DNA of 64,000 nt from Bacteroidota bacterium (lineage in GTDB: Bacteria > Bacteroidota > Bacteroidia > Palsa-948): positions 141 to 64,140 of the forward strand of contig JACRAL010000098.1 of NCBI GenBank assembly GCA_016213435.1, written 5' to 3'. Positions 23,820 to 60,472 of this stretch are shown here, one piece after another. Each line of letters begins with the position of its first letter. Position 1 is the stretch's first letter. The notes beneath the pieces are model-generated. The model had not been told where the DNA came from and did not search any database. It saw only the letters and a list, made by a program, of their open reading frames with translations. Made by a program: the position numbers and the translations under genes.

Positions 23820-24233
23820 CACATGGGAAGAATAATGGCAATTGACTTCGGAACAAAAAGAATGGGTATTGCTGTTACGGATCCATTGAAACTGATTGCC
23901 AATGCGCTTACAACTGTTGATGCAAAAGGGATAATGTATTTTTTGGAAGAGTATTTTAAGAAAGAAGAAGTGGAATGTGTGGTGCTTGGAAATCCCAATT
24001 CTAAAGGTAGGGGAGGGGATATGACCCAAATGGCAAATGATTTTTTCGGAAAGTTGAAAGAAAAATTTCCCTCAGTGAAAATTGATCGAATAGATGAATT
24101 CTATACTTCAAAATTAGCACAGCGAACGATAATAAGCAGTGGAATAAATAAAACAGCAAGAAGAGATAAATCGTTGGTAGATAAAATTAGTGCAACTATA
24201 CTATTACAAAACTATTTGGAAACAAAACAATAG
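23817..24233 (+). CDS. ruvX: Holliday-junction resolvase-like protein RuvX/YqgF (true start probably the ATG near 23835, MAIDFG)
   Basis: MAIDFGTKRMGIAVTD is the canonical YqgF/RuvX N-terminus; 130-140 aa. Confidence 0.85.
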   Translation: MHMGRIMAIDFGTKRMGIAVTDPLKLIANALTTVDAKGIMYFLEEYFKKEEVECVVLGNPNSKGRGGDMTQMANDFFGKLKEKFPSVKIDRIDEFYTSKLAQRTIISSGINKTARRDKSLVDKISATILLQNYLETKQ

Positions 24234-24250
24234 CTCACCCCAAAAATCTT

Positions 24251-24264
24251 CCCCTTAGGAGGGG
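24251..24264. repeat. REP-like GC-rich hairpin CCCCT-TAGG-AGGGG between ruvX and def
   Basis: Perfect 5-bp stem with 4-nt loop in an AT-rich intergenic region. Core resembles other elements in the window. Confidence 0.4.
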
Positions 24265-24280
24265 CTTCAAATTTTTAATT

Positions 24281-24847
24281 ATGATTTTACCAATTGTAGC
24301 ATATGGTGACCCTGTACTTCGGAAAGTCGGAGTGGATATTGACAAGCAATATTCCGGCTTGGAAAAACTTATTGCCGATATGTTTGAGACGATGGCAAAG
24401 GCAAAAGGTGTTGGACTTGCCGCTCATCAGGTTGGAAAATCCATCCGTCTTTTTGTGGTTGATGCAAGCCCGCTTGCCGAAGAGGATGAGCATCCGGAAT
24501 TAAAAGAGTTTAGAAAGATTTTTATCAATGCAAAAATTGTGGAGGAGAGAGGGGATGAATGGACTTACAGTGAAGGGTGTCTGAGCATTCCTGATATTCG
24601 TGAAGAGGTAAAAAGATTGCCTACCATTAGGATGAAATATATGGATGAGAATTTTGTATCGCACGAAGAAATTTTTACCGGTATTGCTGCCCGTATTATT
24701 CAACATGAATATGACCACATTGAGGGGAAATTGTTTGTTGACAGAATAAATACGCTCAGGAGAACATTGCTGAAAAGTCGTTTGCTGGACATTGCAAAAG
24801 GGAATGTGGATGTATCATACAAAATGAAATTTCCATTGAAGAAATGA
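24281..24847 (+). CDS. def: peptide deformylase
   Basis: Three PDF motifs GVGLAAHQVG, EGCLSIPD, QHEYDHIEG. Confidence 0.9.
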   Translation: MILPIVAYGDPVLRKVGVDIDKQYSGLEKLIADMFETMAKAKGVGLAAHQVGKSIRLFVVDASPLAEEDEHPELKEFRKIFINAKIVEERGDEWTYSEGCLSIPDIREEVKRLPTIRMKYMDENFVSHEEIFTGIAARIIQHEYDHIEGKLFVDRINTLRRTLLKSRLLDIAKGNVDVSYKMKFPLKK

Positions 24848-28133: not shown

Positions 28134-28156
28134 CAAATAAACCAAAATCAACACCT

Positions 28157-28180
28157 GTCCTCTCCCTTTAGGGAAGGGAC
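28157..28180. repeat. REP-like hairpin TCCCTT-TAGGG-AAGGGA immediately upstream of cinA start
   Basis: 6-bp stem, core CCCTTTAGGGA shared with the element inside rarA. Confidence 0.4.
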
Positions 28181-28187
28181 ACCTCTA

Positions 28188-29519
28188 ATGTTCGCAGAAA
28201 TAATTTCCATAGGTGATGAGATTCTTATCGGGCAGATCACAAACTCCAATGCACAATGGATGGCTCAGCAGCTGAATCTTATCGGCATCTCGGTAAAGCA
28301 AATCAGCACTGTTGGCGACAATCGCGAAGATGTTATTAGAATATTTTCAGAAGCACTGCAGCGTGCAGATATCATTCTTATTACAGGAGGACTTGGACCC
28401 ACAAATGACGACATAACTAAACAATGTCTCTGTGATTTTTTTAAGACAAAACTTGTTTTCAACGAGCAGTGTTTTGAAGATGTAAAAAAAATGTTTTCTG
28501 ATCGAAATCTTGGAATGCCTGCCATCAACAAAGGTCAAGCAGAACTTCCGGAAAACTGTATTCCTATCAGAAATAAAAATGGAACTGCTCCGGGGATGTG
28601 GTTTGAAGCCCCACCCCAACCCTCCCCGTTAGGGAGGGAGAAAAATCAACAGCAAGTCCTCCCTAATGGGGAGGATATAGGAGGGGCTCTTTTTGTTTCC
28701 CTCCCGGGAGTTCCCTATGAAATGAAAGCAATGATGTCGGATTTTGTGATCCCTGAACTTCAAAAAAGATTTCAAAGAAATTTCATTGTTCACAAAACGG
28801 TTCATACGCAGGGAATCGGAGAATCAGCTCTTGCAGAAAAAATAAAAGAATGGGAGGACTCTCTTGCCAAACATGAAATCAAGCTAGCTTATCTTCCTTC
28901 ACCCGGGCAGGTAAAACTTCGGGTATCTCTAAACGGGAATGATCAGAAAAAAATTACTGACTTGGTCGATGAAAAAATCAACGAGTTAAGGCAATTAATC
29001 CCCGAATACATTTTTGCTACAGAAGAATTCGGAAAAGAGCCGGAGACGCTGGAAAAAGTTATAGGAGAAATTCTCCGAAAGAAAAAGAAAACACTTGCTG
29101 TCGCAGAAAGTTGTACGGGTGGTTATATTGCGCATCTCATTACAAGTATTGCCGGAAGCTCGGATTATTTCAATGGCGGAATTATCGCTTATGCAAATGA
29201 AATGAAAATTAATGTGTTGAAGGTGGATGTAAAAATTTTGGAAGAGAAAGGAGCTGTTTGTAAGGACGTGGCCGAGCAAATGTCAGACGGTGTTAGAAAA
29301 AGACTGAAGGCAGATTTTGGAATTTCAACTACAGGTATTGCAGGACCAACCGGTGGAAGCGCTGAAAAACCGGTTGGTACAGTTTGGATTTCGGTTACGT
29401 CTGACACTGAAATTATATCCGAAAAATTTAATTTCGGCAATAACAGGGAAAGAAATATTCGAAGAGCTTCTTTATCTGCCTTAAATATGTTGAGAACCCT
29501 GTTAGAAAAACATTCCTAA
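28188..29519 (+). CDS. cinA: competence/damage-inducible protein CinA (with about 24-aa in-frame insertion encoded by GC-rich hairpins)
   Basis: N-terminus AEIISIGDEILIGQITNSNAQW, GTAPGMWFE ... LPGVPYEMK motifs, C-terminal CinA domain. 443 aa versus about 415 typical. Confidence 0.85.
   Translation: MFAEIISIGDEILIGQITNSNAQWMAQQLNLIGISVKQISTVGDNREDVIRIFSEALQRADIILITGGLGPTNDDITKQCLCDFFKTKLVFNEQCFEDVKKMFSDRNLGMPAINKGQAELPENCIPIRNKNGTAPGMWFEAPPQPSPLGREKNQQQVLPNGEDIGGALFVSLPGVPYEMKAMMSDFVIPELQKRFQRNFIVHKTVHTQGIGESALAEKIKEWEDSLAKHEIKLAYLPSPGQVKLRVSLNGNDQKKITDLVDEKINELRQLIPEYIFATEEFGKEPETLEKVIGEILRKKKKTLAVAESCTGGYIAHLITSIAGSSDYFNGGIIAYANEMKINVLKVDVKILEEKGAVCKDVAEQMSDGVRKRLKADFGISTTGIAGPTGGSAEKPVGTVWISVTSDTEIISEKFNFGNNRERNIRRASLSALNMLRTLLEKHS
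28611..28711. repeat. cluster of three GC-rich REP-like hairpins embedded in-frame in cinA
   Basis: Hairpins CCCTCC(C)-CGTTA-GGGAGGG, CCTCCC-TAAT-GGGGAGG and palindrome CTCCCGGGAG. They encode PPQPSPLGREKNQQQVLPNGEDIGGALFVS between the conserved WFE and LPGVP motifs. Confidence 0.6.
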
Positions 29520-30020: not shown

Positions 30021-31339
30021 TATCCGTATTTCTCCTTCCAGTTCTTCTTCAAAAATTTCCGAAATCTTTTCTCTGCATCATTATCTCCCGGTTCATACCA
30101 TTTTGTGCCGCTTAATTCATCCGGAAGAAATTCTGCATTTATAAAATTTCCTTCATAGCTATGAGCATATTGATACTCTTTTCCATAGTTAAGATCTTTC
30201 ATCAGTTGAGTGGGAGCGTTGCGGATAGAAAGCGGAACGGATAGATCGCCAGTTTTTTTTACCGCTTCCTGCGCAGTTCCGATTGCTTTGTAAGAAGCAT
30301 TGCTTTTAGGAGAACAGGCAAGGTAAACAACCGCTTGTGAAAGAATAATTCTTGCTTCCGGCAGGCCAATTGCATTTACTGCCTGAAAACAATTATTAGC
30401 AAGAACAAGCGCCATCGGATTTGCATTGCCCACATCTTCCGAAGCGAGAATGAGCAATCTTCTGGCTATGAAAAGAGGATCTTCACCGCCTTCAATCATT
30501 CTTGCTAAGTAGTAAACTCCCGCATTTGGATCACTGCCACGTATTGATTTGATGAATGCGGAAATAATATCGTAATGCTGCTCGCCCGTTTTATCATACA
30601 AAGCCATTTTCTGCTGAACAACATTCAAAAGATTTTCATCAGTGATTACGATATCTTGCACCCCGCCCTGAAGGGAGCTATTGTCATCACTTTCCCCCTT
30701 TAGGGACGGGGTAATCGAACTCACATATAACTCCAATGCGTTATATAACTTCCTTACATCACCGCCTGAAAGACGAAGCAACGCATCACTTTCTTTCACA
30801 ATTATTTTTTTCTTTTTTAATATCTCATCTGCATGAATTGCATAATCAATGAGTGAGATCAAATCCTGTTTTTCCAGATGATTCAACAAATAAACCTGGC
30901 AGCGAGAAAGCAAAGCGGAAATTACTTCGAACGAAGGATTTTCTGTTGTGGCTCCGATCAGCGTAATGGTTCCTTTCTCCACTGCTCCAAGCAAAGAATC
31001 TTGTTGTGCCTTGCTGAAACGATGAATTTCATCTATGAAAAGTATAGGATAATTTGTTCCGAAAAATGAATCAGCGGATGCTTTGTCAATTACCTCGCGT
31101 ATGTCTTTGACTCCTGAATTGATTGCGCTCAGCTGGTAATAGGGGCGTTTTAGTTGAGTGGCAATGATCCTTGCCAGTGTTGTTTTTCCTACGCCCGGAG
31201 GTCCCCATAAGATCATGGAAGGAATAGTTCCGGCTTCAATGGCTCTTCTGAGAATAGCGCCTTCGCCCACAAGGTGTTTCTGACCGATAAATTCATTCAG
31301 CGTTTTAGGACGAAGCCGCTCTGCTAAAGGAATACTCAT
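30017..31339 (-). CDS. rarA: replication-associated recombination protein A (AAA ATPase RarA/MgsA)
   Basis: Walker A GPPGVGKTTLARIIA, Walker B LFIDEIHRF, and C-terminal MgsA helical/tetramerisation region with YDxxGEQHYDIISAFIKSIRGSD. Confidence 0.9.
   Translation of the reverse strand: MSIPLAERLRPKTLNEFIGQKHLVGEGAILRRAIEAGTIPSMILWGPPGVGKTTLARIIATQLKRPYYQLSAINSGVKDIREVIDKASADSFFGTNYPILFIDEIHRFSKAQQDSLLGAVEKGTITLIGATTENPSFEVISALLSRCQVYLLNHLEKQDLISLIDYAIHADEILKKKKIIVKESDALLRLSGGDVRKLYNALELYVSSITPSLKGESDDNSSLQGGVQDIVITDENLLNVVQQKMALYDKTGEQHYDIISAFIKSIRGSDPNAGVYYLARMIEGGEDPLFIARRLLILASEDVGNANPMALVLANNCFQAVNAIGLPEARIILSQAVVYLACSPKSNASYKAIGTAQEAVKKTGDLSVPLSIRNAPTQLMKDLNYGKEYQYAHSYEGNFINAEFLPDELSGTKWYEPGDNDAEKRFRKFLKKNWKEKYGY
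30664..30711. repeat. GC-rich REP-like element (CCCTGAAGGG ... CCCCCTTTAGGGACGGGG) in-frame in the rarA linker
   Basis: Encodes KGESDDNSSLQGG in a linker about 11 aa longer than in E. coli RarA (sequence recalled from memory). Confidence 0.45.
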
Positions 31340-31422: not shown

Positions 31423-31497
31423 GGTGGTTGTAGCTCAGTTGGTTAGAGCACTAGATTGTGGTTCTAGGGGTCGCGGGTTCAAGTCCCGTCATCCACC
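31423..31497 (+). tRNA. tRNA-His (anticodon GTG) with genomically encoded G-1; no encoded CCA
   Basis: Cloverleaf read by hand: G-1, acceptor GTGGTTG/CATCCAC, D-arm GCTCAGTTGGTTAGAGC, anticodon stem CTAGA/TCTAG with loop TTGTGGT, T-arm GCGGGTTCAAGTCCCGT, discriminator C. Confidence 0.8.
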
Positions 31498-31694
31498 CTT
31501 CTTCAAATTACATTGCGACTCTGACGCACTAGTACTCCTGCGTCAGTAGTCAGAGTGCAGGTCAAAGCGTCAGCATTCAAGTCCCGTCATCCACCCTTCT
31601 TCAAATTACATTGCGGCTCTGACGCACTAGTACTCCTGCGTCAGTAGTCAGAGTGCAGGTCAAAGCGTCAGCATTCAAGTCCCGTCATCCACCC
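31478..31694 (+). repeat. 98-bp tandem repeat (2.2 copies) seeded in the tRNA-His 3' end; the 21-mer TTCAAGTCCCGTCATCCACCC occurs three times
   Basis: Copies at about 31478-31498, 31576-31596 and 31674-31694. The intervening 77-bp units differ by a single nt and contain the hairpin CTGACGCA-N10-TGCGTCAG. Confidence 0.8.
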
Positions 31695-36254: not shown

Positions 36255-36410
36255 TGAGCTTTCCGGCAGAGGATATGAGCTTTTCGGTGGACGATTTGAC
36301 ATTTCCTGTAGAGGATTTGAGCTTTCCGGTGGACGATTTGACATTTCCTGTAGAGGATTTGAGCTTTCCGGTATAGGATTTGAGCTTTCCGGTAGACGAT
36401 TTGACATTTA
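36255..36410. repeat. 21-bp tandem repeat, about 7.4 units (GAGCTTTCCGGTGGACGATTT / GACATTTCCTGTAGAGGATTT alternating; 42-bp higher-order period), filling the gap between the ThiF-nitroreductase gene stop and the GNAT gene start
   Basis: Units 2+3 and 4+5 are identical except for one nt. Both strands are open across the array (ORFs 36213-36407 minus and 36184-36441 plus). Confidence 0.8.
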
Positions 36411-38747
36411 TATTATAGAATTTGTGAATTTTAATACTTGATCAAGGGGATATCTTAATGATCTGAATTTCGGGGGATTATCAATTATAAATCGCATTAA
36501 TAGTACTTTTCCTTTTTGAGGATTGATGCCAAATAAATCTTCAAGTTCCTTCAACAAGGTTGTTGCTTCTTTTCGCATGTTATCTGGAAGGGCATCTTTT
36601 TTACCATATACTAAAGTATTAAATATTAAAATTGATAAAGAAGGAGGGTGGGTGGAGATGTTATCATGATTGGCAGCCAGCCATACTCTTTCTAAAGCCC
36701 GACCGCCTTGGTAAAAATTATTGGTTGTGAATGAAGGCACTGTTAACAGCCCGACAGCGGCTGAGCCGCGAATCCACTTGCGTTGAATTTTTCCAAATGC
36801 AGAACCTAATTCCCAATCGGCAAGATGTTTAACAACCGACCAATCTTTGCTTACAAAAAATCCGGCAAATTCTGTTGGAGTTAGATCCATTGTTTCCTGA
36901 AAGCTAATTCCGTTTCTTGTTCTTTCCGCTTCTTCAATAGTCCAACGAGCTTCTCCTCTAAAATCATTATGTCCTCCTTTGCTCAGATACCTGATTCGAT
37001 CCATCTTGGCGGTTATCTCACTTAGTTTAATGAGCTTATCTTCATCATCTATAATAATCATATCTGCTCCGGGAATGGTGCGGGCAATTTCTTGTAGTTT
37101 ATTTAACCTGTTTTTTTCAATTGTTTTTCTTTGTACAATTGTTCTGTTTGATACTCTGGAGTTGATTGTTTTAGATAAGTGGTCGCACACATGGGGTTCC
37201 AGTTTATCTTTTATTTCAGCATGTGCTGTATCAAAAAAACGAAAGGTGGTTATTAATTTTGTATCGTCATTAATTTCCACTGTTTGAGCTGCTACTTCCA
37301 GTCCGAGCTCATGGGCTTTTAATACCAAATTTTCGGCTGCTGCTCCAAGCCCCGTAATCATGGTTGTTCTTTGGCAATCCAATAAATCGGGACGGAACAC
37401 ATCATCAAAAAAGAAGTATAGATTTTTGTTGTGATACATCCATTTCCATGTCTGGCTGTTTGCTCCGGAGGGAGCTTTAGAGGCAGCTTCGGCTAATTGT
37501 TTAATTGTGTTTTCCGGCAGATCAATTTGTAAGTTCCAGGTTTCTTGATGGGCTGAATGGATTATATCTAACATTTCTTTATCACTCAAAGATGGTTTGA
37601 TATTCAAAGGCTGCTCGATATATTCTTTTGTGTTTTTATCTTTTATTACCTCTTCCAGATCCACAAAATATCTTCCCGAATCATGCAGTTGATTCAGCAA
37701 AACTCTTCGGCACACATCCGCACATATTCCCCCGCCCAAAACCACACCCGATGCCAATTGAGGCCAGGTTGTTATTGTTTGTTCAATTTCCAGCATAGAA
37801 GCCCTTAGCCGGGTGGATGAAGTTTCTACTCCTAACATGGGTAACAGATAAGGAACTTTTTCTTCATTGGTCTTGGCCTGTTTTACTAAACTCAAATCCA
37901 AGTGATCAATCAATCCGTGCAAGATTGGTAATTCAGGGTTTAGATCATAGCGCTCTATATCGGTTGTTCCTTTATCGCTTGAATTCATAACAACGGGAAT
38001 ACGCAGTGACTTTGCTTTTTGACGTGTAAATATCTTTGTATACAAACCATCGCATACCTCAATGCATACATCTAACTTGCCATCTTTTAGAAAAAAGTCA
38101 TCTGCATTTGCTTCGGTTAGTCCATCAGAATACCAGGTAACTTTTAAATAAGGATCAATTTCCGAGATTTCTCTGGCTACCACAATCGTTTTTTTAATTC
38201 CAAAGTTTTGAACTCCGGTTTGTATGCGGTTTAGGTTAGAGAGTTCAATAACATCAAAATCTGCAATCCGGAGCTCACTGCATATTCGTTCCATGGCTAT
38301 GGTTAAAGCAATGGCTTTTCCTACAGACAATCCTATTACTCCAATTTTTTTTGTTGCAAGTATTTTTTCCTCCTCAGGAGTTATCTTATAATGATTCCTA
38401 TTTGTTCTTACTTCCACAAATTCTTTTTCATCCAATATATGTATCAACTTTTTTGACCAAGGGTAGTAAACCCAAACACCGTATTCTTCACTCGGTATAG
38501 AGCCAATATGTTTTTTAGCTGCTTCGGTTAAAGCGCTTTTAGTAAATACTATTTTAGGATTTTGAGATTTTACGAGTTCTTCCAATTGCCCCTGAAGCTC
38601 ATCAAATACATTTATATCGGGGGTTTCTTTAAGTAATTGCGTCAGCTTGTTGTTGTCAGAGGCGTTATTTAAGCGAAAAAACAATGGGTAAGCAACTGTT
38701 TCGCTCGATTTAGTTTGTTTGCATAAAATGGCTAATTTATCCTTCAT
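36408..38747 (-). CDS. E1-like (ThiF/MoeB-fold) - nitroreductase-like (SagB-type dehydrogenase fold) fusion protein, Rv1355c/MoeY-like architecture
   Basis: Rossmann KKIGVIGLSVGKAIALTIAMERICSELRIADFDVIELSNLNRIQ (E1-like nucleotide-binding). C-terminal ASKAPSGANSQTWKW is the nitroreductase-family FMN-binding signature. Confidence 0.65.
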   Translation of the reverse strand: MKDKLAILCKQTKSSETVAYPLFFRLNNASDNNKLTQLLKETPDINVFDELQGQLEELVKSQNPKIVFTKSALTEAAKKHIGSIPSEEYGVWVYYPWSKKLIHILDEKEFVEVRTNRNHYKITPEEEKILATKKIGVIGLSVGKAIALTIAMERICSELRIADFDVIELSNLNRIQTGVQNFGIKKTIVVAREISEIDPYLKVTWYSDGLTEANADDFFLKDGKLDVCIEVCDGLYTKIFTRQKAKSLRIPVVMNSSDKGTTDIERYDLNPELPILHGLIDHLDLSLVKQAKTNEEKVPYLLPMLGVETSSTRLRASMLEIEQTITTWPQLASGVVLGGGICADVCRRVLLNQLHDSGRYFVDLEEVIKDKNTKEYIEQPLNIKPSLSDKEMLDIIHSAHQETWNLQIDLPENTIKQLAEAASKAPSGANSQTWKWMYHNKNLYFFFDDVFRPDLLDCQRTTMITGLGAAAENLVLKAHELGLEVAAQTVEINDDTKLITTFRFFDTAHAEIKDKLEPHVCDHLSKTINSRVSNRTIVQRKTIEKNRLNKLQEIARTIPGADMIIIDDEDKLIKLSEITAKMDRIRYLSKGGHNDFRGEARWTIEEAERTRNGISFQETMDLTPTEFAGFFVSKDWSVVKHLADWELGSAFGKIQRKWIRGSAAVGLLTVPSFTTNNFYQGGRALERVWLAANHDNISTHPPSLSILIFNTLVYGKKDALPDNMRKEATTLLKELEDLFGINPQKGKVLLMRFIIDNPPKFRSLRYPLDQVLKFTNSII

Positions 38748-40915: not shown

Positions 40916-41127
40916 GTTAAGTGTAAAGTTAAGGATTTTTATTTTGAGTGAAACGAAAATTCATTCCTTACTTCCCGTTCCACAAACACTCTTCCTCATG
41001 TTGTTTGATAAGCACGCCCTGTTTTGCGGAACGGTGTAATAATTCAGGATAACCTGCATAGATTTTTGGATAGTATCTGACACAGATACGTGAACCTGCT
41101 CTTTAAAAGTTAATTCATCGGATGGTT

Positions 41128-41480
41128 CTACTTATTCCTCTGCTTTTTGAATCAACAAAGCGGATGATTTTATTCATTCCTCTGCGTTTTGAATTGCTTC
41201 CTCCGATCATGCTATTCATTCCTCCGCTTTTTGAATCAACAAAGCGGATGATTGTATTCATTCCTCCACCTTTTGAATTATTTCATCCGATAATGCTATT
41301 CATTCCTCGGATTTTTGAATTAACAAAGCGGATGATCCTATTCATTCCTCTTCTTTTTGAATTGCTTCCTCCGCTTTTTGAATAAACAAAGCGGATGATT
41401 GTATTCATTCCTCCACCTTTTGAATTATTTCATCCAATCATGCTATTCATTCATCCACTTTTTGAATCATATCCTCCTAT
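41128..41480. repeat. degenerate tandem array, about 42-bp subunits (TATTCATTCCTC-N5-TTTTGAAT-N17) alternating two variants, giving an 84-bp period with about 4 copies
   Basis: TATTCATTCCTC occurs about 9 times and CTTTTTGAATCAACAAAGCGGATGATT four times. The ORF 41122-41385 is a repeat artefact. Confidence 0.7.
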
Positions 41481-47535: not shown

Positions 47536-49257
47536 CTAAAAATCGTAATAAACATTGTTCAGAGAAGTGCGGATTCCAAAGTAAATGAAGTTGGTTTGAG
47601 AGTTTTCAATTGTGCTTGTGCTGCTTCGGTTTGAAATTCCAACCAAAATATTAAAGTTTGTTGCAGGATTTATAAGATAGCCGATATGAAAATCGAAAAT
47701 CCGTAGCGTTGTTTTTATGCCTTGTCCCATTTCATTGTGGGTAGAATTTACTCCATATAAAGCATTGTTATCTGAACTGAAAATGTTATTGCCGTAATTT
47801 CTTCCGAGAGAATCTTTGCCGATGATGGCATAATTCACTTTTACTTCAGTAAAGAGATTTCCGATGCGATAATTCAGGAAAGCAATTGCTTCTTTGAAAT
47901 TTGCTCCGAGCGGATGTGCCAGTGGCTGGTTGTAATGCGTGTAGCTCTGAGCAGATTTTTTTGAAGCATACGAATAAGGACGAACTTGGTTGTACTCGAC
48001 TTGCAAGTGCAGATTTCGTAATCCGAACAAGTCGAAATATTTTGCTCCTGCCTGAAACCCTTGTTTATTATGCAATGAATTTCTTGTAAAATCCTTTGAG
48101 ATGTCATCCAGCATGTATTGTCCGTAGAGGGAAATTGAATTAGTGATCTTGCATTTCAATGTCCATCCGAGCAACACGTTGTTTGTTCCCGCCAATCCTT
48201 CGGAGAGTGCAGCATTATAAATAAGCGGACTGAAATAATTAAAGTTCAAATCTTGCTTGTTCATCGAATCGCTTGCCTGCCAGACAATCCCTTGAAAAAA
48301 ACCTAATTGAATTCTCTTGTTGATATTCCAGCTCAGGAATTGAAAATTTCCTGCTTTCTTTTGGAATAATCTTTCTGTGCCGGGAGGAGTCTTTACTCCT
48401 CCATCCGTCAAATTCATGAACACAGTATAGAGATTTGTGTACTGAAATTTTCCAAAAGAAGAAGCGACACGCAGAAAAGGATAATTGAACGCATTGTCGC
48501 TCAGCAAAAGCGAGCGGTAGCCATCTCCAATAAAATGTTTTCCGATACCTGCTTGAAAATTAAAATACTTGCTTGGGGAATAGGAAACGTATCCTGAAGC
48601 CATCGCAAAGTCATAGCCGTTGGTTTTAAATCTTTTCCATCTGCCTTGGCCCGGCACAACCAAGGAAGCATTATTGAAGTCCTGTATGTAATTAACAAAG
48701 GTTGCTTGATTTTCAAGAAAAGAACTTTCAAAAGAAAAGTTTTTTCCTATATCTCCGCGCAGCAAAATTCCACGCATGTTCTTGTAAAATGATTTTGAAG
48801 AATCCGCACGATCTCTTCCATATTCAAAGTTAAAAAGGGGGTCAATGGTGAGGTGGAATTTGTCGGTGGTATCGTTGACGATGAAAAGATTTTCTTTTCT
48901 AAATTTAGTTCCAATTTTTTTCCAAAAGGTGTTTTGGTATATTTTTTCTGAATGCCAAGTGTTAGAAATAATTGGTTTGAAACAGGATGTAGAATCAACA
49001 TTATAATAAGCGACACCGTATCCTCCCCATGCACTTCCCCATGAATCAATTGCGTCACTTTTCCATTTGATTGTATCTGCATGTGAGTTAATTAGAGATC
49101 GATTTTTTTCTCTTCCCAAGCTCCATTCCCTATTCAAGGGCAAATTTTTTTGCTGAGAAAAGAGAAAGATTGGAAAAAAAATAAATAGTCCCGTTAGGGA
49201 CATAATATTTATAGAAAAAATGTCCGCAGATGTATTTGAGTTCTGTAGGAACGACAT
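47536..49257 (-). CDS. outer-membrane beta-barrel protein, paralog of 44599-46197 (true start probably the Met near 49203, MSLTGLFIFF)
   Basis: See paralog. A REP hairpin overlaps the probable start codon. Confidence 0.4.
   Translation of the reverse strand: MSFLQNSNTSADIFSINIMSLTGLFIFFPIFLFSQQKNLPLNREWSLGREKNRSLINSHADTIKWKSDAIDSWGSAWGGYGVAYYNVDSTSCFKPIISNTWHSEKIYQNTFWKKIGTKFRKENLFIVNDTTDKFHLTIDPLFNFEYGRDRADSSKSFYKNMRGILLRGDIGKNFSFESSFLENQATFVNYIQDFNNASLVVPGQGRWKRFKTNGYDFAMASGYVSYSPSKYFNFQAGIGKHFIGDGYRSLLLSDNAFNYPFLRVASSFGKFQYTNLYTVFMNLTDGGVKTPPGTERLFQKKAGNFQFLSWNINKRIQLGFFQGIVWQASDSMNKQDLNFNYFSPLIYNAALSEGLAGTNNVLLGWTLKCKITNSISLYGQYMLDDISKDFTRNSLHNKQGFQAGAKYFDLFGLRNLHLQVEYNQVRPYSYASKKSAQSYTHYNQPLAHPLGANFKEAIAFLNYRIGNLFTEVKVNYAIIGKDSLGRNYGNNIFSSDNNALYGVNSTHNEMGQGIKTTLRIFDFHIGYLINPATNFNILVGISNRSSTSTIENSQTNFIYFGIRTSLNNVYYDF
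49188..49201. repeat. REP element GTCCC-GTTA-GGGAC 3' of the RAYT gene
   Basis: Perfect 5-bp stem. Inverted orientation relative to the REPs at 49761-49824. Confidence 0.6.
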
Positions 49258-49258
49258 A

Positions 49259-49720
49259 TTATTGTATTTCTTTTAAAACATACCGTTCATCGTACTCAAC
49301 ATTAAATTTCTGTAACAATTTCGTGTATTTTTCTTTGAATGTCCTTTTCTGATGATGATGCTCCTGATTATTGATGTATTTAACAACCCTGTCAATATGA
49401 GAGTGAGAATAAGAAAATGCACCATAACCTTCCTGCCATTTGAATTTGCCTTTCACAAATCCTTTTTTATTAATCCAGCCGGAAGAATTTCCCTTAATGT
49501 CTTGCAGTAAATCCGGAATTAATTGGTGTGGCTTGTAGCCAATAAAAATATGAATGTGATCAGCCACGCCATTGATTGCAATCAATTTGTGTTTATTGTT
49601 TTGCACTATGCCTGTAATATATTTATACAACTCATCCTTCCATGAATTATTAATCAGGGAAATTCTATCTTGAACGGAAAATACAAATTGAATGTATAAT
49701 TGGGTGTATGTATTTGCCAT
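49259..49720 (-). CDS. IS200/IS605-family Y1 (HUH) transposase, REP-associated tyrosine transposase (RAYT)-like
   Basis: 153 aa. HUH motif DHIHIFI and GYGAFSYS...YINNQEHHH C-terminal Tyr helix, characteristic of Y1 transposases. Flanked by REP hairpins. Confidence 0.75.
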   Translation of the reverse strand: MANTYTQLYIQFVFSVQDRISLINNSWKDELYKYITGIVQNNKHKLIAINGVADHIHIFIGYKPHQLIPDLLQDIKGNSSGWINKKGFVKGKFKWQEGYGAFSYSHSHIDRVVKYINNQEHHHQKRTFKEKYTKLLQKFNVEYDERYVLKEIQ

Positions 49721-49736
49721 GTTTTGAATATTGTGT

Positions 49737-49824
49737 CCCTATGGGGCTATAAACATTTTGTCCCTAACGGGATTTGCATGGTTGGTTTCTTTTTCTATAA
49801 ATATCCTGTCCCTCACGGGACAGG
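49737..49824. repeat. three REP-like hairpins 5' of the RAYT gene (CCC-TAT-GGGG; TCCC-TAAC-GGGA; CCTGTCCC-TCAC-GGGACAGG), the last abutting the fcl stop codon
   Basis: Read directly. All share the GTCCC...GGGAC core. Confidence 0.6.
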
Positions 49825-49826
49825 GA

Positions 49827-50753
49827 TTAGAATTTTTCCTTCACTTCTTCATACACCAATCGAATTCCATCTTCCAAACCAATCTTATGTTTCCATCCGA
49901 TGGAATTAATTTTATTTACATCCATGAGTTTTCGGGGCGTGCCATCCGGTTTTGAAGAATCAAGTTTAAATTCTCCTTCATAACCAACAATCTTTTTTAT
50001 CAGAAGCGCAAGGTCCTTTATGGAGATGTCTGTTCCCATTCCCACATTAATCAATCCTTGTTCGTTGTATTTTTCCATTAGAAATAAACACGCTTCTGCG
50101 CAATCATCCACATGCAGAAATTCTCTTTTTGGTGTTCCGCTTCCCCAGATTTCTGTGAATGGTTTATTCTCTTTTTTCGTTTCGTGAAATTTTCTGAGCA
50201 GGGCGGGAAGCACGTGAGAATTATTTAAATCGTAATTATCGTTAGGTCCGAAAAGATTTGTCGGCATTACGGAAATAAAGTTGCATCCGTACTGTGCTCG
50301 GTAAGCATCGCACATTAATATCCCTGCGATCTTTGCGGCTGCGTAGGGCTCGTTGGTCTCTTCCAGTTTTCCGGTGAGTAAATATTCTTCCTTCAATGGC
50401 TGTGGAGCGAATTTCGGATAAATGCAGGAAGATCCGAGGAACAAAAGTTTCTTCACTTTATTATCGTAAGAACTGTGAATCACATTGTTCTGAATCATTA
50501 GATTTATATAAATGAACTCAGCCCTGAGCGTATTGTTTGCGTTAATGCCTCCCACTTTTGCCGCAGCAAGAAAAACATATTCGGGTTTTTCTTTTGCGAA
50601 AAAATCTTTTACTGCCTGTTGGTTGCAGAGATCAAGTTCTTTGGAAGTGCGTGTAACAATGTTGGAAAATCCTTCCTTCTGAAGTTTTCTCAGAATGGCA
50701 GAGCCCACCATTCCCTTGTGACCTGCGATGTATATCTTACTTTGTTTTTCCAT
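49827..50753 (-). CDS. fcl: GDP-L-fucose synthase (GDP-4-keto-6-deoxymannose 3,5-epimerase/4-reductase)
   Basis: N-terminal [19 protein letters not shown] Rossmann, catalytic YxxxK, 308 aa. Confidence 0.85.
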
Positions 50754-50839: not shown

Positions 50840-51928
50840 TTATTCATGTAGATTCAGTACGGTATGTCCTCCCTCCAAAAGGTATTTATCACGCTGAAAT
50901 AATTTAATATCGGATGTTACCATTTCTTTCACTAATTGCTCTACAGAAATCTTTGCCGACCAGCCAAGTTTCTTTTTTGCCTTGGATGCATCACCAATTA
51001 ACAGATCTACTTCTGTGGGACGGAAATATTTTTTATCAATTTCCATGATTGTTTTTCCTGTAGCGGAATTAATTCCTTTTTCGTTCTCATGTTTGCCTTT
51101 CCATTCGATCTTAGTCCCCGTTTCGGAAAAAGCGAGCTCCATAAATTTTCGTACAGATATTTTTTTTTCGGTAGCAAGTACAAAATCATCGGCTTCTTTT
51201 TGCTGAAGCATCAGCCACATTCCTTCCACATAATCTTTTGCATGCCCCCAATCGCGTTCTGCATCCAAGTTTCCAAGGAAAACTTTTTCCTGAAGTCCAA
51301 GATGGATTCTTGCAGCAGCGCGGGTAATTTTTCGTGTTACAAATGTTTCTCCTCTCACCGGACTTTCGTGGTTGAAAAGGATCCCGTTGCAGGCAAACAT
51401 GTTGTATGCTTCGCGGTAATTTTTTGTAATGTAAAATGCATACGCTTTGGCAGCACCATAAGGACTACGTGGATTAAATGGTGTGGATTCTTTCTGCGGG
51501 ATTTCCAGAACATCACCGTAAAGTTCCGAAGTAGAAGCCTGGTAGAATTTAGTTTTCTTTTCCAATTTCAGAATGCGGATGGCTTCGAGCAGGCGAAGCG
51601 CTCCGATTGCATCGGCATTGGCAGTGTATTCAGGAGTTTCAAATGAAACCTGTACGTGAGATTGTGCTGCGAGATTATAAATTTCATCGGGCTGAGTTTC
51701 CTGCACTACCCGGATGAGATTGGTGCTGTCGGTTAGATCACCGTAGTGAAGAAAAAACTTCACGTCTTTCTCGTGTAAATCATGATACAGATGGTCCACA
51801 CGCTGAGTATTGAACATAGAACTTCTGCGCTTGATGCCGTGCACGATATATCCTTTTTTGAGGAGAAGCTCGGCAAGATAGGATCCATCTTGTCCTGTAA
51901 TTCCGGTGATGAGTGCGGTTTTTGGCAT
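50840..51928 (-). CDS. gmd: GDP-mannose 4,6-dehydratase
   Basis: [23 protein letters not shown], catalytic STSELYG and YxxxK, 362 aa. Confidence 0.9.
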
Positions 51929-55622: not shown

Positions 55623-56372
55623 TTTGATCACTTCATCATCCATTTCCTGTGCGTTTTTTTTTATAAATGCTTTGCTTGAGTTGGGATTAGCAAAAGCAAA
55701 CTCCACGCTTCTGCGGATAATGCGTTCGACTTTTTTTTGAATTTCCTTTGGAAAACTTTTGTTGATGGCAATTCCTCCGAGGGGAATGGGTGATTTTGTT
55801 TTTTTCTCCCACCAGTTTCCAAGATCAATTACTTTCTTCAATCCCTTTTGTTTATAAGTGAAACGACTTTCATGAATGATCACTCCCAGATCAAACTTTC
55901 CTTTCAGCACCGCGTCTTCAATTTCAGAAAAAAGAACTTCGATTTTGTTTTTCAGTTTGGGATAAGCAAGTGAGAAGAGGAGATTGGCGGTGGTGTTTTT
56001 TCCGGGGATGGCAACACGTAAGTTAGAAGTTAGAAGTTTAAGGTTTAAAGTTGAAACAACCAAAGGTCCAACACCAAAGCCAAGTGCTGAACCTGAATCA
56101 AGTAAAGAATATTTATCTTGAACTTGTGAGAAAGCAAAAAAACTAATTTTTGTAATATCAAGTTGCTTTTTTGTCGCCTTCCCTTCGGGAAGGTCGGGAT
56201 GGGCTGCCCTTCTGTTCAATGCTTCTACATCTTCAATTATCGCTTTGAATTTTAATCCTTCGGTGTCTACTTTTCCATGAAGCATTGCATGGAAGATGAA
56301 GCAATCATTGGGGCAGGGAGAAAATCCGAGGGTTAATGGAAGATGGCTGATGGTTGATGGAATGCGTTTCAT
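55515..56372 (-). CDS. mqnD: MqnA/MqnD-family menaquinone (futalosine pathway) biosynthesis protein, most like 1,4-dihydroxy-6-naphthoate synthase MqnD
   Basis: N-terminus LTLGFSPCPNDCFIFHAMLHGKV...EDVEALN and GPLVV ... IPGKNTTANLL fit the MqnD periplasmic-binding-like fold. Ortholog comparison is from memory. Confidence 0.6.
   Translation of the reverse strand: MKRIPSTISHLPLTLGFSPCPNDCFIFHAMLHGKVDTEGLKFKAIIEDVEALNRRAAHPDLPEGKATKKQLDITKISFFAFSQVQDKYSLLDSGSALGFGVGPLVVSTLNLKLLTSNLRVAIPGKNTTANLLFSLAYPKLKNKIEVLFSEIEDAVLKGKFDLGVIIHESRFTYKQKGLKKVIDLGNWWEKKTKSPIPLGGIAINKSFPKEIQKKVERIIRRSVEFAFANPNSSKAFIKKNAQEMDDEVIKQHIHLYVNKYSISLGTKGRKAVSVLLRKIAQIKDK
56177..56193. repeat. perfect GC-rich palindrome CCTTCCC-TTC-GGGAAGG in-frame in mqnD-like gene (encodes DLPEGKA)
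   Basis: Read directly. 7-bp stem in an otherwise AT-rich gene. Confidence 0.5.
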
Positions 56373-58495: not shown

Positions 58496-60472
58496 TTATT
58501 CGGATTGGATACTTGGTTTTTGTTGTTTATCTAACTCTTCATACACTGAATTCTGACTTCTGAACTCAGGTACAATTTCTTTCATTCTTTTTACAATAGC
58601 AGTGCTGTCTTGATTTTGAAGAAGGGAAATCAGCGCACCCACTTTTTCTGAAACTTCCTCGTGTCCATATTCCCTCACCTTGCCAACCATAATCTGAGGA
58701 TTGTGAGTGGGAAGCGTATTTTCTTTTGTGGCAAGAAGTTCTTCGAAAAGTTTTTCCCCCGGACGCAATCCGGTGTAAACTATCTGTATGTCTTTCCCGA
58801 GTGTGAGTCCTGCAAGCTGGATCATCTTTTTGGCGAGGTCAGCAATCTTGACCGACTGTCCCATGTCGAACACAAAAATTTCTCCGCCTTTTCCCATCGC
58901 GCCTGCTTCTAAAACCAATTGGCATGCTTCGGGAATGGTCATAAAAAAACGTGTGATATCCGGATGAGTAACGGATATTGGTCCGCCTCTTTCAATTTGG
59001 TGTCTGAAAAGTTGAATCACCGAACCGTTAGATCCGAGCACATTTCCAAAGCGGGTGGTGATGAATTTGCAGCCCCCTCTAACTCCCCCTTCAGGGGAGG
59101 ATTTATTTTCGCCCTCCCTGAAGGGGAGGGAAGGGGTGGGGCTGAGCGATTGCACATACATCTCCGCAATTCTTTTTGAAGCGCCCATTACGTTGGTGGG
59201 ATTAACGGCTTTATCAGTAGACACCATCACGAATTTTTCTACTCCGTGTTTTACCGCGAGATCGGCCATGATCTTGGTGCCGAGCACATTGGTTTGAATG
59301 GCTTCAAGCGGATGGTGTTCCATCATCGGCACATGCTTGTATGCCGCTGCATGATACACAACTTGGGGAGAATATTTACTGAAAATACTTTCCATCCTTT
59401 CTTTATTTCTCACATCGGCAATCACAATTTCAAAAGAGCGCAGGTGGAAAATATTTTTCAGTTCCATCTCCATTTCATAGAGAGGAGATTCGGCAGTGTC
59501 GATCAGAACTATTTTTTTTGAATTGAATTTTGAAAGCTGTCTCACGATTTCGCTTCCGATAGAACCCGCAGCCCCGGTTACAAGAATCACTTTGTCGCGT
59601 GTCTGCCGTTTGATGTTTTCCATATCAAGTTTGATCGGATTGCGTTCGAGAAGATCTTCAATGCGAACTTTTTTTATCTGCTTGAAACTAAGCTCTCCGT
59701 TTATCCAGCTGCTCACCGGAGGCACATTCAGGATTTTGGTATTGTATTTTAAACATATTTCCACAATTTCTTCTTTTCGTTTCGCGGGAATATTTTGAAC
59801 AGAAATGATCATGTGTGCTACGTTTCCATCTCGTAGAAGTTCTTCCAGTTTGTTAAATCCGTAAATAGTAATTCCTTCCAGTTTGCTTTCCCATTTTTTT
59901 TCGTTGTCGTCAATAAAGGCAAGCACTTTGTATTTCATTCCTGCATCGCGGTCAAGTGTTCGCTTGGTGATGATGCCTGATTCGCCCGATCCGAAAATGA
60001 TGACGCTGGTTTTTGTGCGACTTGGATTTTTCCATTCGAGATAAATGGATTTAAAAATGAGCCGCAGGCTGATCATCAGGAAAGTGGTCGTCATGTATTC
60101 AATGACGAGGATGGAGAAGGGGATAATAAATGTATCTGTAATAAAGTAATATTTTATGATATTGGCAATAGCAAAAAAGATACTGCCAAGTGTGGTGACG
60201 ATAAAAATCCGTTGTGCATCTCTCGAACTGGTATAGCGAACAATGCCTTTATGTGTTTTTGAAATAAAAAAACTCAAAGCACGTACTCCGATTACAAAAG
60301 GGAAAATAAGAGGAAATGTGTCTAATTCCACCTGTGGAATTGCTGCGAAGTTGAAGCGGAGCAAATAGGCGATGATAAGAGCAAAAAAACAAATGAACAG
60401 ATCGATCAGGAAAATTATCCAGCGCGGAGCGGTGCGTTCAAAGAGAAGCATAATTTTTAAATTTGTGTTCAA
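58496..60472 (-). CDS. membrane-anchored polysaccharide biosynthesis protein CapD/PglF/WbpM-like (UDP-sugar 4,6-dehydratase)
   Basis: N-terminal 4 TM. Rossmann ILVTGAAGSIGSEIVRQL, GASKRIAEMYV and RFGNVLGSNGSV motifs. Confidence 0.8.
   Translation of the reverse strand: MNTNLKIMLLFERTAPRWIIFLIDLFICFFALIIAYLLRFNFAAIPQVELDTFPLIFPFVIGVRALSFFISKTHKGIVRYTSSRDAQRIFIVTTLGSIFFAIANIIKYYFITDTFIIPFSILVIEYMTTTFLMISLRLIFKSIYLEWKNPSRTKTSVIIFGSGESGIITKRTLDRDAGMKYKVLAFIDDNEKKWESKLEGITIYGFNKLEELLRDGNVAHMIISVQNIPAKRKEEIVEICLKYNTKILNVPPVSSWINGELSFKQIKKVRIEDLLERNPIKLDMENIKRQTRDKVILVTGAAGSIGSEIVRQLSKFNSKKIVLIDTAESPLYEMEMELKNIFHLRSFEIVIADVRNKERMESIFSKYSPQVVYHAAAYKHVPMMEHHPLEAIQTNVLGTKIMADLAVKHGVEKFVMVSTDKAVNPTNVMGASKRIAEMYVQSLSPTPSLPFREGENKSSPEGGVRGGCKFITTRFGNVLGSNGSVIQLFRHQIERGGPISVTHPDITRFFMTIPEACQLVLEAGAMGKGGEIFVFDMGQSVKIADLAKKMIQLAGLTLGKDIQIVYTGLRPGEKLFEELLATKENTLPTHNPQIMVGKVREYGHEEVSEKVGALISLLQNQDSTAIVKRMKEIVPEFRSQNSVYEELDKQQKPSIQSE
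59083..59130. repeat. two GC-rich REP-like hairpins (CTCCCC-CTTCA-GGGGAG; CCCTCCC-TGAAG-GGGAGGG) in-frame in the capD-like gene
   Basis: They encode about 20 extra residues (PTPSLPFREGENKSSPEGGVRGG) between the conserved YVQSL and TTRFGNV motifs. Confidence 0.55.

Follow-up and report, generated by a model that had tools for sequence, protein, structure and literature searches.

A hairpin-framed Y1 transposase gene of probable REPtron-like nature in a Bacteroidota genome

Introduction

The standard example of a bacterial transposase that has been domesticated, and that is accompanied by a resident population of short mobile repeats, is provided by repetitive extragenic palindromes (REPs) and their REP-associated tyrosine transposases (RAYTs). 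Here we analyze a gene for a Y1 (HUH) single-strand DNA transposase-like protein, and the short hairpin repeats that flank it, in a stretch of 64,000 nt from the genome of a Bacteroidota bacterium (assembly GCA_016213435.1, contig JACRAL010000098.1, positions 141 to 64,140), hereafter termed the window; all coordinates refer to this stretch unless a locus is named.

Results

The Y1 gene and its flanking repeats

The gene is an intact open reading frame (ORF) of 153 aa on the minus strand, lying between fcl and an ORF for a Wzi-like outer-membrane protein (OMP), and both of its flanks are occupied by copies of one basic repeat (Table 1). This repeat, of ~26 nt, consists of a G+C-rich hairpin with a 5-bp stem (GTCCC/GGGAC) and a loop of 3-4 nt (usually GTA or GTTA), followed by 3 nt and by the conserved 10-nt tail ATATTTATAG, which an initial annotation of the window, made from the sequence, had overlooked. 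Two such units in direct order, 47-50 nt apart, make up a doublet, and the gene has one doublet upstream and an inverted doublet downstream. Read on the gene strand, the outer upstream unit (H1a) is CCTGTCCC-GTGA-GGGACAGG plus ATATTTATAG, and the outer downstream unit (H1') is CTATAAATAT, tat and GTCCC-TAAC-GGGAC. The inner upstream unit (H2), in a position equivalent to that of H2 in homologue loci, lies 5 nt before the Y1 ATG and has one imperfect stem pair, while the inner downstream unit (H2') is degenerate and directly follows the Y1 stop codon, a position at which the syntenic locus L126, described below, carries GTTCCTACGGAAC.

The framing of a HUH/Y1 IS200-like gene by inverted hairpins, as reported in the initial annotation, is borne out by the arms 49188-49219 and 49790-49821, which form a 32-nt inverted repeat with 91% complementarity. 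The two sides are indeed in opposite orientation, their loops reading GTTA or GTGA on one and TAAC on the other, and the opposition is clearer still in the asymmetric tail (ATATTTATAG versus CTATAAATAT). The count of three palindromes upstream, the outermost ending 5 nt from the fcl stop codon, also stands; that of a single one downstream has to be amended, the degenerate H2' hairpin at 49240-49252 having been missed. The sequence GTCCCNNNNGGGAC occurs with at most one mismatch at three sites in the 64 kb (49188, 49760 and 49808), all of which flank Y1, against 0.57 sites expected from shuffles. Likewise, a profile hidden Markov model (HMM) of the doublet matches the window in these flanks only, with E=4e-16 (H1'), 4e-10 (49708-49775) and 4e-9 (H1a), the next match having E=0.27. 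Folded as single-stranded DNA, the Y1 flanks are more stable than shuffles (z about -3). The motif GT[AG]G was not found at the 5' foot of the hairpins, the 5' flank of which is not conserved, and the conserved element is instead the 3' tail ATATTTATAG.

Table 1. Features of the Y1 locus; positions are those of the window.
Feature	Position	Strand	Description
Y1 gene	49259-49720	-	Y1 (HUH) single-strand DNA transposase-like protein, 153 aa, IS200-like subclass 1.2 by its motifs
H1a	49795-49824	-	outer upstream unit; hairpin 49808-49821, stem extendable to 8 bp (49805-49824); tail 49795-49804
H1b	49747-49773	-	second upstream unit; hairpin 49760-49773; gene strand ATCCC-GTTA-GGGAC aaa ATGTTTATAG
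H2	49726-49747	-	inner upstream unit; hairpin 49735-49747; gene strand GCCCC-ATA-GGGAC aca ATATTC
H2'	49240-49258	-	degenerate inner downstream unit; gene strand TATGTC GTTCC-TAC-AGAAC; hairpin GTTCCTACAGAAC at 49240-49252
H1'	49188-49214	+	outer downstream unit, inverted relative to the upstream units; hairpin 49188-49201; plus strand GTCCC-GTTA-GGGAC ata ATATTTATAG
fcl	49827-50753	-	GDP-L-fucose synthase-like epimerase; upstream neighbour outside the unit, marking the insertion boundary; stop codon 49827-49829
OMP ORF	47536-49257	-	Wzi-like outer-membrane protein, 573 aa, downstream neighbour; weak Caps_assemb_Wzi match, on the L210 orthologue
gmd	50840-51928	-	
GT4 glycosyltransferase		-	follows the OMP ORF in minus-strand order

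The Y1 protein

The predicted protein matches the Pfam domain Y1_Tnp (PF01797) over its full length (E=2e-26; 92.9 bits against a cut-off of 23, with residues 5-119 on profile positions 2-121 of 121) and passes the NCBIfam IS200 equivalog model (66 bits against a cut-off of 55). It carries the motifs ADHIH (the HUH motif, H55-I-H57), KWQ (W95-Q96) and YINNQEHHH (Y115-INN-Q119-E-H122-H123), and among 50 homologues H55, H57, W95, Q96, Y115, Q119, H122 and H123 are invariant, as are Y132, L136, F139, Y147 and L149 in the C-terminal tail. H55-I-H57 and Y115 align with the corresponding motifs of ISDra2 TnpA, which is the best match in a sequence search of the PDB (E=1.7e-5) and is followed by other IS200/IS608 transposases, the E. 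coli RAYT being absent from the matches at E up to 1. A single-sequence AlphaFold model proved unusable (predicted local distance difference test, pLDDT, 47), and a model built with the 50 homologues was of moderate confidence (pLDDT 61.5); with the latter, a Foldseek search of the PDB returned ISDra2, IS608 and Sulfolobus TnpA at ranks 1-29 (E about 1e-7) and the E. coli RAYT 4ER8 at rank 30 (E=8.5e-4). Both by sequence and by predicted fold, the window protein is nearer to the TnpA of IS200, IS608 and ISDra2 than to the E. coli RAYT.

Judged by its motifs, the protein belongs to the IS200-like subclass 1.2 of Quentin et al. (2018), displaying DH[IV]H, WQ, Y---Q--HH, a length close to the characteristic 148 aa or so and the conserved C-terminal tail. 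It lacks the Y[IV]ENQ motif of the autonomous IS200 of subclass 1.1, having YINNQEHHH in its place, and the Y---NP motif of class-2 RAYTs, where it has YINNQ with an invariant Q119.

Conservation of the hairpin frame

Clustered at 90% identity, the relatives of the Y1 protein with E of 1e-10 or lower number ~8000, and the best 120, which are 74-89% identical, are nearly all of about 153 aa. Homologue loci were chosen by protein similarity alone, 80 of them from a scan of metagenome contigs together with other Y1 loci, and provided 73 upstream and 75 downstream non-redundant flanks. Exactly two perfect 5-bp hairpins lie within 100 nt upstream of Y1 in 54 of the 73 upstream flanks; on the downstream side, two hairpins are present in 43 flanks and one in 22. 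The loops are strictly polar, with GTA, GTTA, GTCA, GATA and TTTA upstream and their complements (TAC/TAAC) downstream, and successive hairpins are typically spaced by 47-50 nt. A hairpin doublet, the gene and an inverted doublet is thus the frame of most homologue loci. Aligning 117 doublets, upstream ones as they stand and downstream ones reverse-complemented, gives the consensus G-TCCCGTTAGGGAC-AAA-ATATTTATAG, about 20 nt, AA-GTCCCGTAGGGAC-GAAATA.

Conservation of the hairpins was measured with the profile HMM and by direct counting of stems, as loops of 3 and of 4 nt were aligned inconsistently by MAFFT and the second hairpin alone was recovered by RNAalifold. In the protein-anchored loci, a perfect 5-bp stem precedes 132 of 160 ATATTTATAG tails. 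Stem variants are compensatory (ATCCC/GGGAT in 12 cases, GCCCC/GGGGC in four, and GTTCC/GGAAC), and L126 presents GCCCC-GCTA-GGGGC at the position of GTCCC-GTGA-GGGAC in the window, a pattern of substitution that argues for selection of the hairpin as a structure. The repeat also appears to track the enzyme lineage, with GTCCC, GCTCC and GTTGC among its stem variants. In Bernardetia, where Y1 is 54% identical, the doublet layout and the tail (ATATTTGTAG) persist although GTTGC/GCAAC forms the stem, and unrelated repeats flank two subclass-1.2-like Y1 genes whose identity is 35-44%. Divergent subclass-1.2-like genes were observed at L074 (5707-6135; YIANQGVHH), with ACCGT-loop-ACGGT hairpins on both sides, and at L033 (4249-4671; YIKRQEEHH), with a direct repeat of ~70 nt on both sides.

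Whole units, comprising the gene and its flanks, are duplicated in tandem at L002 and L131. The two Y1 genes of L002 (10001-11206) lie 744 nt apart and their intergenic sequence is near-identical. A different rearrangement is seen at L003 (about 9700-10000 and 10700-10760), where a second upstream-type doublet lies downstream of the Y1 unit, with a sequence after it that is nearly identical to the one preceding the unit (CTTTCGTTTGGGGTTGATGACCT versus CTTTGTTTCATTTGGTGTTGATGACCT), which suggests that the flank was duplicated together with the doublet.

Dispersed copies of the repeat

The exact pattern GTCCCGTN{1,2}GGGACNNNATATTTATAG, with 22 fixed bases, was scanned over one-genome-per-species contigs and over viral contigs. 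In the former it matches at least 120 stretches from at least ten phyla, and the record titles of the matches listed name Acidobacteriota, Bacteroidota, Poribacteria, KSB1, Ignavibacteria/Kapaibacterium, Fibrobacterota, Latescibacterota, Calditrichota, Neomarinimicrobiota, Edwardsbacteria and Planctomycetota. Genomes bearing the pattern include closed chromosomes and two isolates. Among isolates, the units are found in Flavobacterium daemonense JCM 19455, Splendidivirga corallicola BMA10 and Bernardetia sp. Wsw4-3y2. Most copies are not accompanied by the gene: a Y1-like ORF follows 9 of the 132 copies that have at least 700 nt on the tail side, so that about 93% are gene-less. Copies are also extragenic, given that, of 236 profile hits in the motif loci, only 6% have most of their length in an ORF of 100 aa or longer, whereas ORFs cover 77% of these loci. 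When all ORFs of 100 aa or longer located up to 3 kb from the motif were clustered, no gene family other than Y1 recurred beside orphan copies, and the possibility that these motifs are the ends of TnpB/IS1341-type or other cargo elements was rejected on this basis. A known structured RNA was likewise discarded, no Rfam family reaching its gathering score at 12 motif loci or at the window locus.

The arrangement of gene-less copies is varied. At L063 two convergent doublets lie side by side within about 165 nt, resembling the frame minus its gene, L033 harbors an alternating array of eight doublets, and divergent pairs and, in Poribacteria, direct tandem arrays occur as well. In the Bacteroidota metagenome-assembled genome (MAG) JAYUZN01, an element of ~215 nt with two inverted units is found on at least 14 contigs, often at their ends; its hairpins are subterminal, with a terminal inverted repeat of 21-35 nt outside them, and its outer terminal sequence (AGGAATGAAAATTAAATA...) also precedes H1 of the Y1 gene of the same genome. 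At L038, in a Bacteroidales MAG, a Y1 remnant of 29 aa is left between two convergent doublets.

The tandem arrays of the Poribacteria genome CAXXLX01 (L013, L045, L076, L082, L090 and L099) comprise up to nine hairpin-plus-tail units with a period of 47-53 nt and identical linkers, and end in a conserved sequence of ~40-60 nt (AGrTTAGkGaAAaCGGAcaTTTATTwTCAAaCTCACGT...). A likeness of these arrays to CRISPR was considered and dismissed, the would-be spacers being identical within an array and the period being 47-53 nt.

Constraint and carriage of the Y1 gene

The gene order fcl, Y1, OMP is shared with L126, where identity to the window is 91.5% for Y1, 84.7% for Fcl and 62% for the OMP. Between these two loci, Y1 has a nonsynonymous divergence (dN) of 0.036 and a synonymous divergence (dS) of 1.07, whereas fcl has dN=0.106 and a saturated dS. 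A dN/dS of about 0.03 for Y1 at a point where synonymous sites are saturated, together with the invariance of the catalytic residues, indicates that the Y1 protein is under purifying selection. A single contig on record encodes the exact protein. The unit was assembled within a 66-kb contig, on which a MAG protein 100% identical to the gmd product of the window is encoded, and it therefore did not break the assembly. No Y1 match at 60% identity or more was found among 72,556 plasmids, and viral contigs yielded neither a match to the 22-base pattern nor a Y1 relative, so that carriage of the Y1 family by phages or, at that identity, by plasmids was set aside. The genomic contexts of the unit are unrelated between genomes.

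Overlap with the neighboring genes

On the upstream side, the stem of H1a, extended to 8 bp and followed by a T-rich run, lies 5 nt after the fcl stop codon, and because of this stem and T-rich run just after the gene H1a looks like a terminator. On the downstream side, the sequence TAATATG overlaps the Y1 stop codon and the OMP start: the ATG at 49257-49255, within H2', opens the long OMP ORF, and the hairpin of H1', for which the initial annotation had described an overlap with the probable OMP start codon, overlaps a second in-frame ATG (49203-49201) and encodes 'SLTG'. The ORF opened by TAATATG runs through H2' and H1' into the OMP both in the window (49188-49261) and in L126 (1922-2020), the first 18-35 codons of the window OMP ORF consisting of the hairpin doublet, while the mature part of the protein (QQKNLPLNREW) aligns with the orthologues of empty sites, whose signal peptides are unrelated. 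Since two diverged genomes share this passage of the OMP ORF across the two downstream hairpins, the 5' end of the OMP gene (its signal-peptide region) appears to have been formed by the repeat doublet. It seems reasonable to postulate that the gene-proximal repeats have been co-opted locally, as a terminator-like stem after fcl and as the 5' end of the OMP ORF.

The polysaccharide locus is variable around the Y1 site, since in L207 and L208 (3059-4216), relatives with a gmd 92% identical, the DNA directly upstream of gmd holds small phage-like genes along with a tyrosine integrase, and the OMP gene is missing.

Other repeats of the window

The initial annotation had taken palindromes at 24251, 28157, 28611-28711, 29553, 30664, 33185, 56177 and 59083 to be cores related to the Y1 hairpins, with the Y1 gene as their likely source. 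Neither sequence comparison nor the doublet profile HMM supports this, and the window's other GC-rich palindromes were therefore rejected as copies of the Y1 unit. Several of them belong to a second, unrelated family, a GC-rich two-hairpin element of about 80 nt present at 28596-28700 and, inverted, at 59061-59160, with the layout AGCCCCACCCC..CCCTCCCC-loop-GGGAGGG..TCCTCCC-loop-GGGGAGGA..GGGGCT and with fragments or look-alikes at 24231-24290, 28140-28200, 30660-30730 and 56160-56220. This element has only the core TCCC(C)GTTAGGGA in common with the Y1 hairpin and lacks the tail; no cognate gene for it was identified in the window.

At 31424-31694, a tRNA-His gene (31424-31498) precedes 2.2 copies, 99% identical, of a 98-nt tandem repeat. 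The final 21 nt of the tRNA open every unit of this repeat, so that the tRNA 3' end is present three times, an arrangement that resembles the duplicated attachment sites of an integrative element. Tandem-repeat arrays were also noted at 36255-36424 and 41119-41426, with periods of 21/42/63 nt and 42/84 nt.

Discussion

We propose that the window unit is REPtron-like, that is, a single intact and constrained Y1/HUH gene of subclass 1.2 framed by its own putative recognition sequences, and we consider this reading probable, if clearly short of certain. The analogy with REP/RAYT systems holds for the family because the same repeat is dispersed, extragenic and mostly gene-less in other genomes. 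In this sense the likeness to REP-RAYT systems drawn in the initial annotation can be retained for the frame and for the dispersed repeats, but, strictly speaking, the protein is no RAYT, since it has Y---Q--HH and not Y---NP and its hairpins lack GT[AG]G. By analogy with the TnpA of IS608 and ISDra2 and with TnpA-REP, the Y1 enzyme would bind the hairpin in single-stranded DNA, and Tyr115, held by the H55/H57 metal site, would cut near or in the conserved tail; rejoining of the strands by the enzyme would then copy or move hairpin-bounded segments. The products of such a process in other genomes may be the gene-less inverted pairs, resembling REP doublets forming hairpins (REPINs), the alternating clusters, resembling bacterial interspersed mosaic elements (BIMEs), and the tandem arrays, all of them extragenic. 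In our reading, a unit of this kind would be under strong selection where it is present, and yet gained, lost and probably transferred.

Several observations weigh against this proposal. The doublet profile HMM detects no orphan copy of the cognate unit away from the Y1 gene in the 64-kb window, and the dispersal described above is that of the repeat family and of JAYUZN01, the only MAG in which orphan copies and a Y1 gene occur within one genome, with the genome of the window outside this evidence. No close Y1 gene was found in the examined stretches of the Poribacteria (CAXXLX01 and OZ244616) and Acidobacteriota (QHXI01 and OY970352) genomes that are rich in orphan copies, and the phylum labels rest on MAG record titles, so that binning errors could inflate the number of phyla. 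Binding by a subclass-1.2 enzyme, its cleavage site and its spreading of the repeats are steps that we infer by analogy, and the conserved tails of the two ends are both directed at the gene, unlike the left-end/right-end geometry of IS608. Moreover, in L209 and L210, whose gmd genes are 89-92% identical, the OMP gene starts 35-41 nt after fcl with no Y1 between them. Identities of fcl among the window, L126, L209 and L210 are 84-89%, L126 being nearer to the empty L210 (89.3%) than to the window, and because the same site is empty in equally distant relatives the Y1 unit must have been gained or lost and is not fixed. Finally, Y1 proteins are 68-78% identical across Bacteroidota, Ignavibacteria and Edwardsbacteria MAGs, with one relative in a record named for Desulfosarcina, and such identity between phyla points to horizontal spread, which is as compatible with a selfish mobile unit as with a domesticated one.

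An ordinary autonomous insertion sequence (IS) of the IS200 type, whose gene and doublets transpose as one selfish element, spread horizontally and leave gene-less copies as derivatives of the MITE kind, all without domestication, would account for that cross-phylum identity and for the whole-unit duplications in L002 and L131. It would also agree with the match to the NCBIfam IS200 equivalog, with the IS200/IS605 TnpA proteins as neighbors in sequence and fold, with the subterminal hairpins and outer 21-35 nt terminal inverted repeat of JAYUZN01, and with unrelated contexts in different genomes and an fcl-OMP site that is empty in relatives. We nevertheless regard it as rather unlikely. The ends are symmetric and inverted, whereas IS200/IS605 elements have distinct left and right ends on one strand, and the protein has Y---Q--HH instead of Y[IV]ENQ, the subclass being of low copy number and devoid of IS properties according to Quentin et al. 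The insertion is old and syntenic, with dS about 1, dN/dS about 0.03 and a Y1 more conserved than fcl. The initial annotation had named many identical transposase copies with standard terminal hairpins as the mark of an ordinary IS; here there is a single copy in 64 kb, its exact protein is on one contig and its ends are inverted, the family is found neither on plasmids at 60% identity or more nor on viral contigs, and about 93% of the repeat copies are without the gene.

That the locus might instead be a decaying relic, with an inactive gene kept by chance or for an unrelated function and fixed in place by its degenerate inner hairpins and by the overlap with the OMP, is suggested by the imperfection of two of the five window units (49735-49747 and 49240-49252), by the lack of orphan copies in 64 kb and by a downstream doublet that now lies within the OMP ORF; a dN/dS of about 0.03 with saturated synonymous sites, invariant catalytic residues and perfect outer hairpins make this very improbable. 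We give even less credence to the idea that the hairpins serve the host as regulatory or structural elements (terminators, mRNA stabilizers or protein-binding sites) among which Y1 merely happens to sit. The 8-bp stem and T-rich run of H1a right after fcl and the extragenic location of the copies would suit such elements, and REPs of E. coli do have secondary roles of this kind (PMC8266576). Yet promoters and terminators differ greatly among the phyla in which this one 26-nt sequence is retained, the inverted frame around Y1 is constant whatever the neighboring genes, and the stem sequence changes with the Y1 lineage; in addition, the gene-deleted derivative of JAYUZN01 has the same termini as the Y1 unit, and no Rfam family matches.

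Beyond the REPtron-like unit of the window, we see roughly an even chance that subclass 1.2 as a whole runs a REP/REPIN-type system of its own, with a ~26-nt unit and a doublet frame almost unchanged over at least ten phyla, that it is intermediate between selfish IS200 and domesticated RAYTs, and that its published REP-less status is an artefact of the search rule. The REP search of Quentin et al. (2018; PMC6006769) accepted only stems of 7 nt or longer with GTAG or GTGG on the 5' side, and would miss units of the window type because their stems are of 5 bp and without 5' GTAG/GTGG. If this is true, the group would be a living intermediate, with a class-1 enzyme, a REPtron layout, REPIN- and BIME-like offspring and a slowly evolving protein, that is still gained, lost and apparently transferred between phyla. 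A class-1 IS200-like enzyme with a REPtron layout would offer a concrete system for studying the transition from IS200 to RAYTs, and a repeat that is near-identical across phyla is an easy marker to count in any genome. Such near-identity also hints at a rigid protein-DNA code, for the dissection of which a single oligonucleotide set could suffice. On the practical side, the repeat units break metagenome assemblies, as in JAYUZN01, and can end up inside coding regions, as apparently in the signal-peptide region of the OMP.

The literature contains two descriptions against which this group can be set, and a search revealed no paper with these hairpin sequences and, on subclass 1.2 and REPtrons in Bacteroidota or Acidobacteriota, no more than Quentin 2018, Bertels 2017 and Corneloup 2021. 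Subclass 1.2, found in Bacteroidetes, has been described as low copy, not IS-like, without the terminal structures of IS200 and with the entry 'REP: no' (Quentin, Siguier, Chandler and Fichant 2018, PMC6006769). The window protein and its relatives agree with it in DH[IV]H, WQ, Y---Q--HH, a length of about 150 aa and the conserved C-terminal tail, apparently also in the low copy number and the absence of IS-like behavior, and differ in the conserved inverted frame of hairpin doublets and in the dispersed gene-less copies; the frame contradicts the published description of the subclass and not membership in it. [quoted passage not shown] (2017, PMC5581495), which has no duplicates, is not found on plasmids and has abundant flanking 16-mers (about 21 per replicon), is probably the same group, as compared by description only, and it was for this IS200 Group 3 that those authors raised the question of intermediates between IS200 and RAYTs and of a single origin or otherwise.

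With the IS200/IS605 family (IS200, IS608 and ISDra2) the unit shares the HUH/Y1 fold, the catalytic residues and short subterminal hairpins as likely recognition elements, and a conserved sequence about 10 nt from the hairpin foot recalls the right end of IS608. In that family, however, two different hairpins lie on the same strand, whereas here the ends are symmetric and inverted with inward tails, and IS200 is multi-copy, near-identical and common on plasmids, which the window Y1 family appears not to be, with the exact protein on one contig and no plasmid match at 60% identity or more. The REPtrons and RAYTs of classes 2.2 and 2.5 (E. coli, Stenotrophomonas and Marinomonas) have in common with the window unit a Y1 gene framed by inverted short palindromes, the gene being usually single-copy in REPtrons and present once in 64 kb here, and, with the wider family of the unit, the dispersal of the palindromes in extragenic DNA as inverted pairs and alternating clusters, a repeat that co-varies with the enzyme lineage and a slowly evolving protein; in Marinomonas REPtron Mb the stems are also of 5 bp with 4-nt loops. 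On the other hand, RAYTs are class-2 enzymes with Y---NP and not class-1 enzymes with Y---Q--HH, and their palindromes bear GT[AG]G at the 5' foot, in place of which the units described here have a 10-nt tail 3 nt after the 3' foot. The window-type units further differ in coming as direct doublets with a spacing of 47-50 nt and, whereas REPs are described as species-specific, in a repeat that is nearly the same across phyla.

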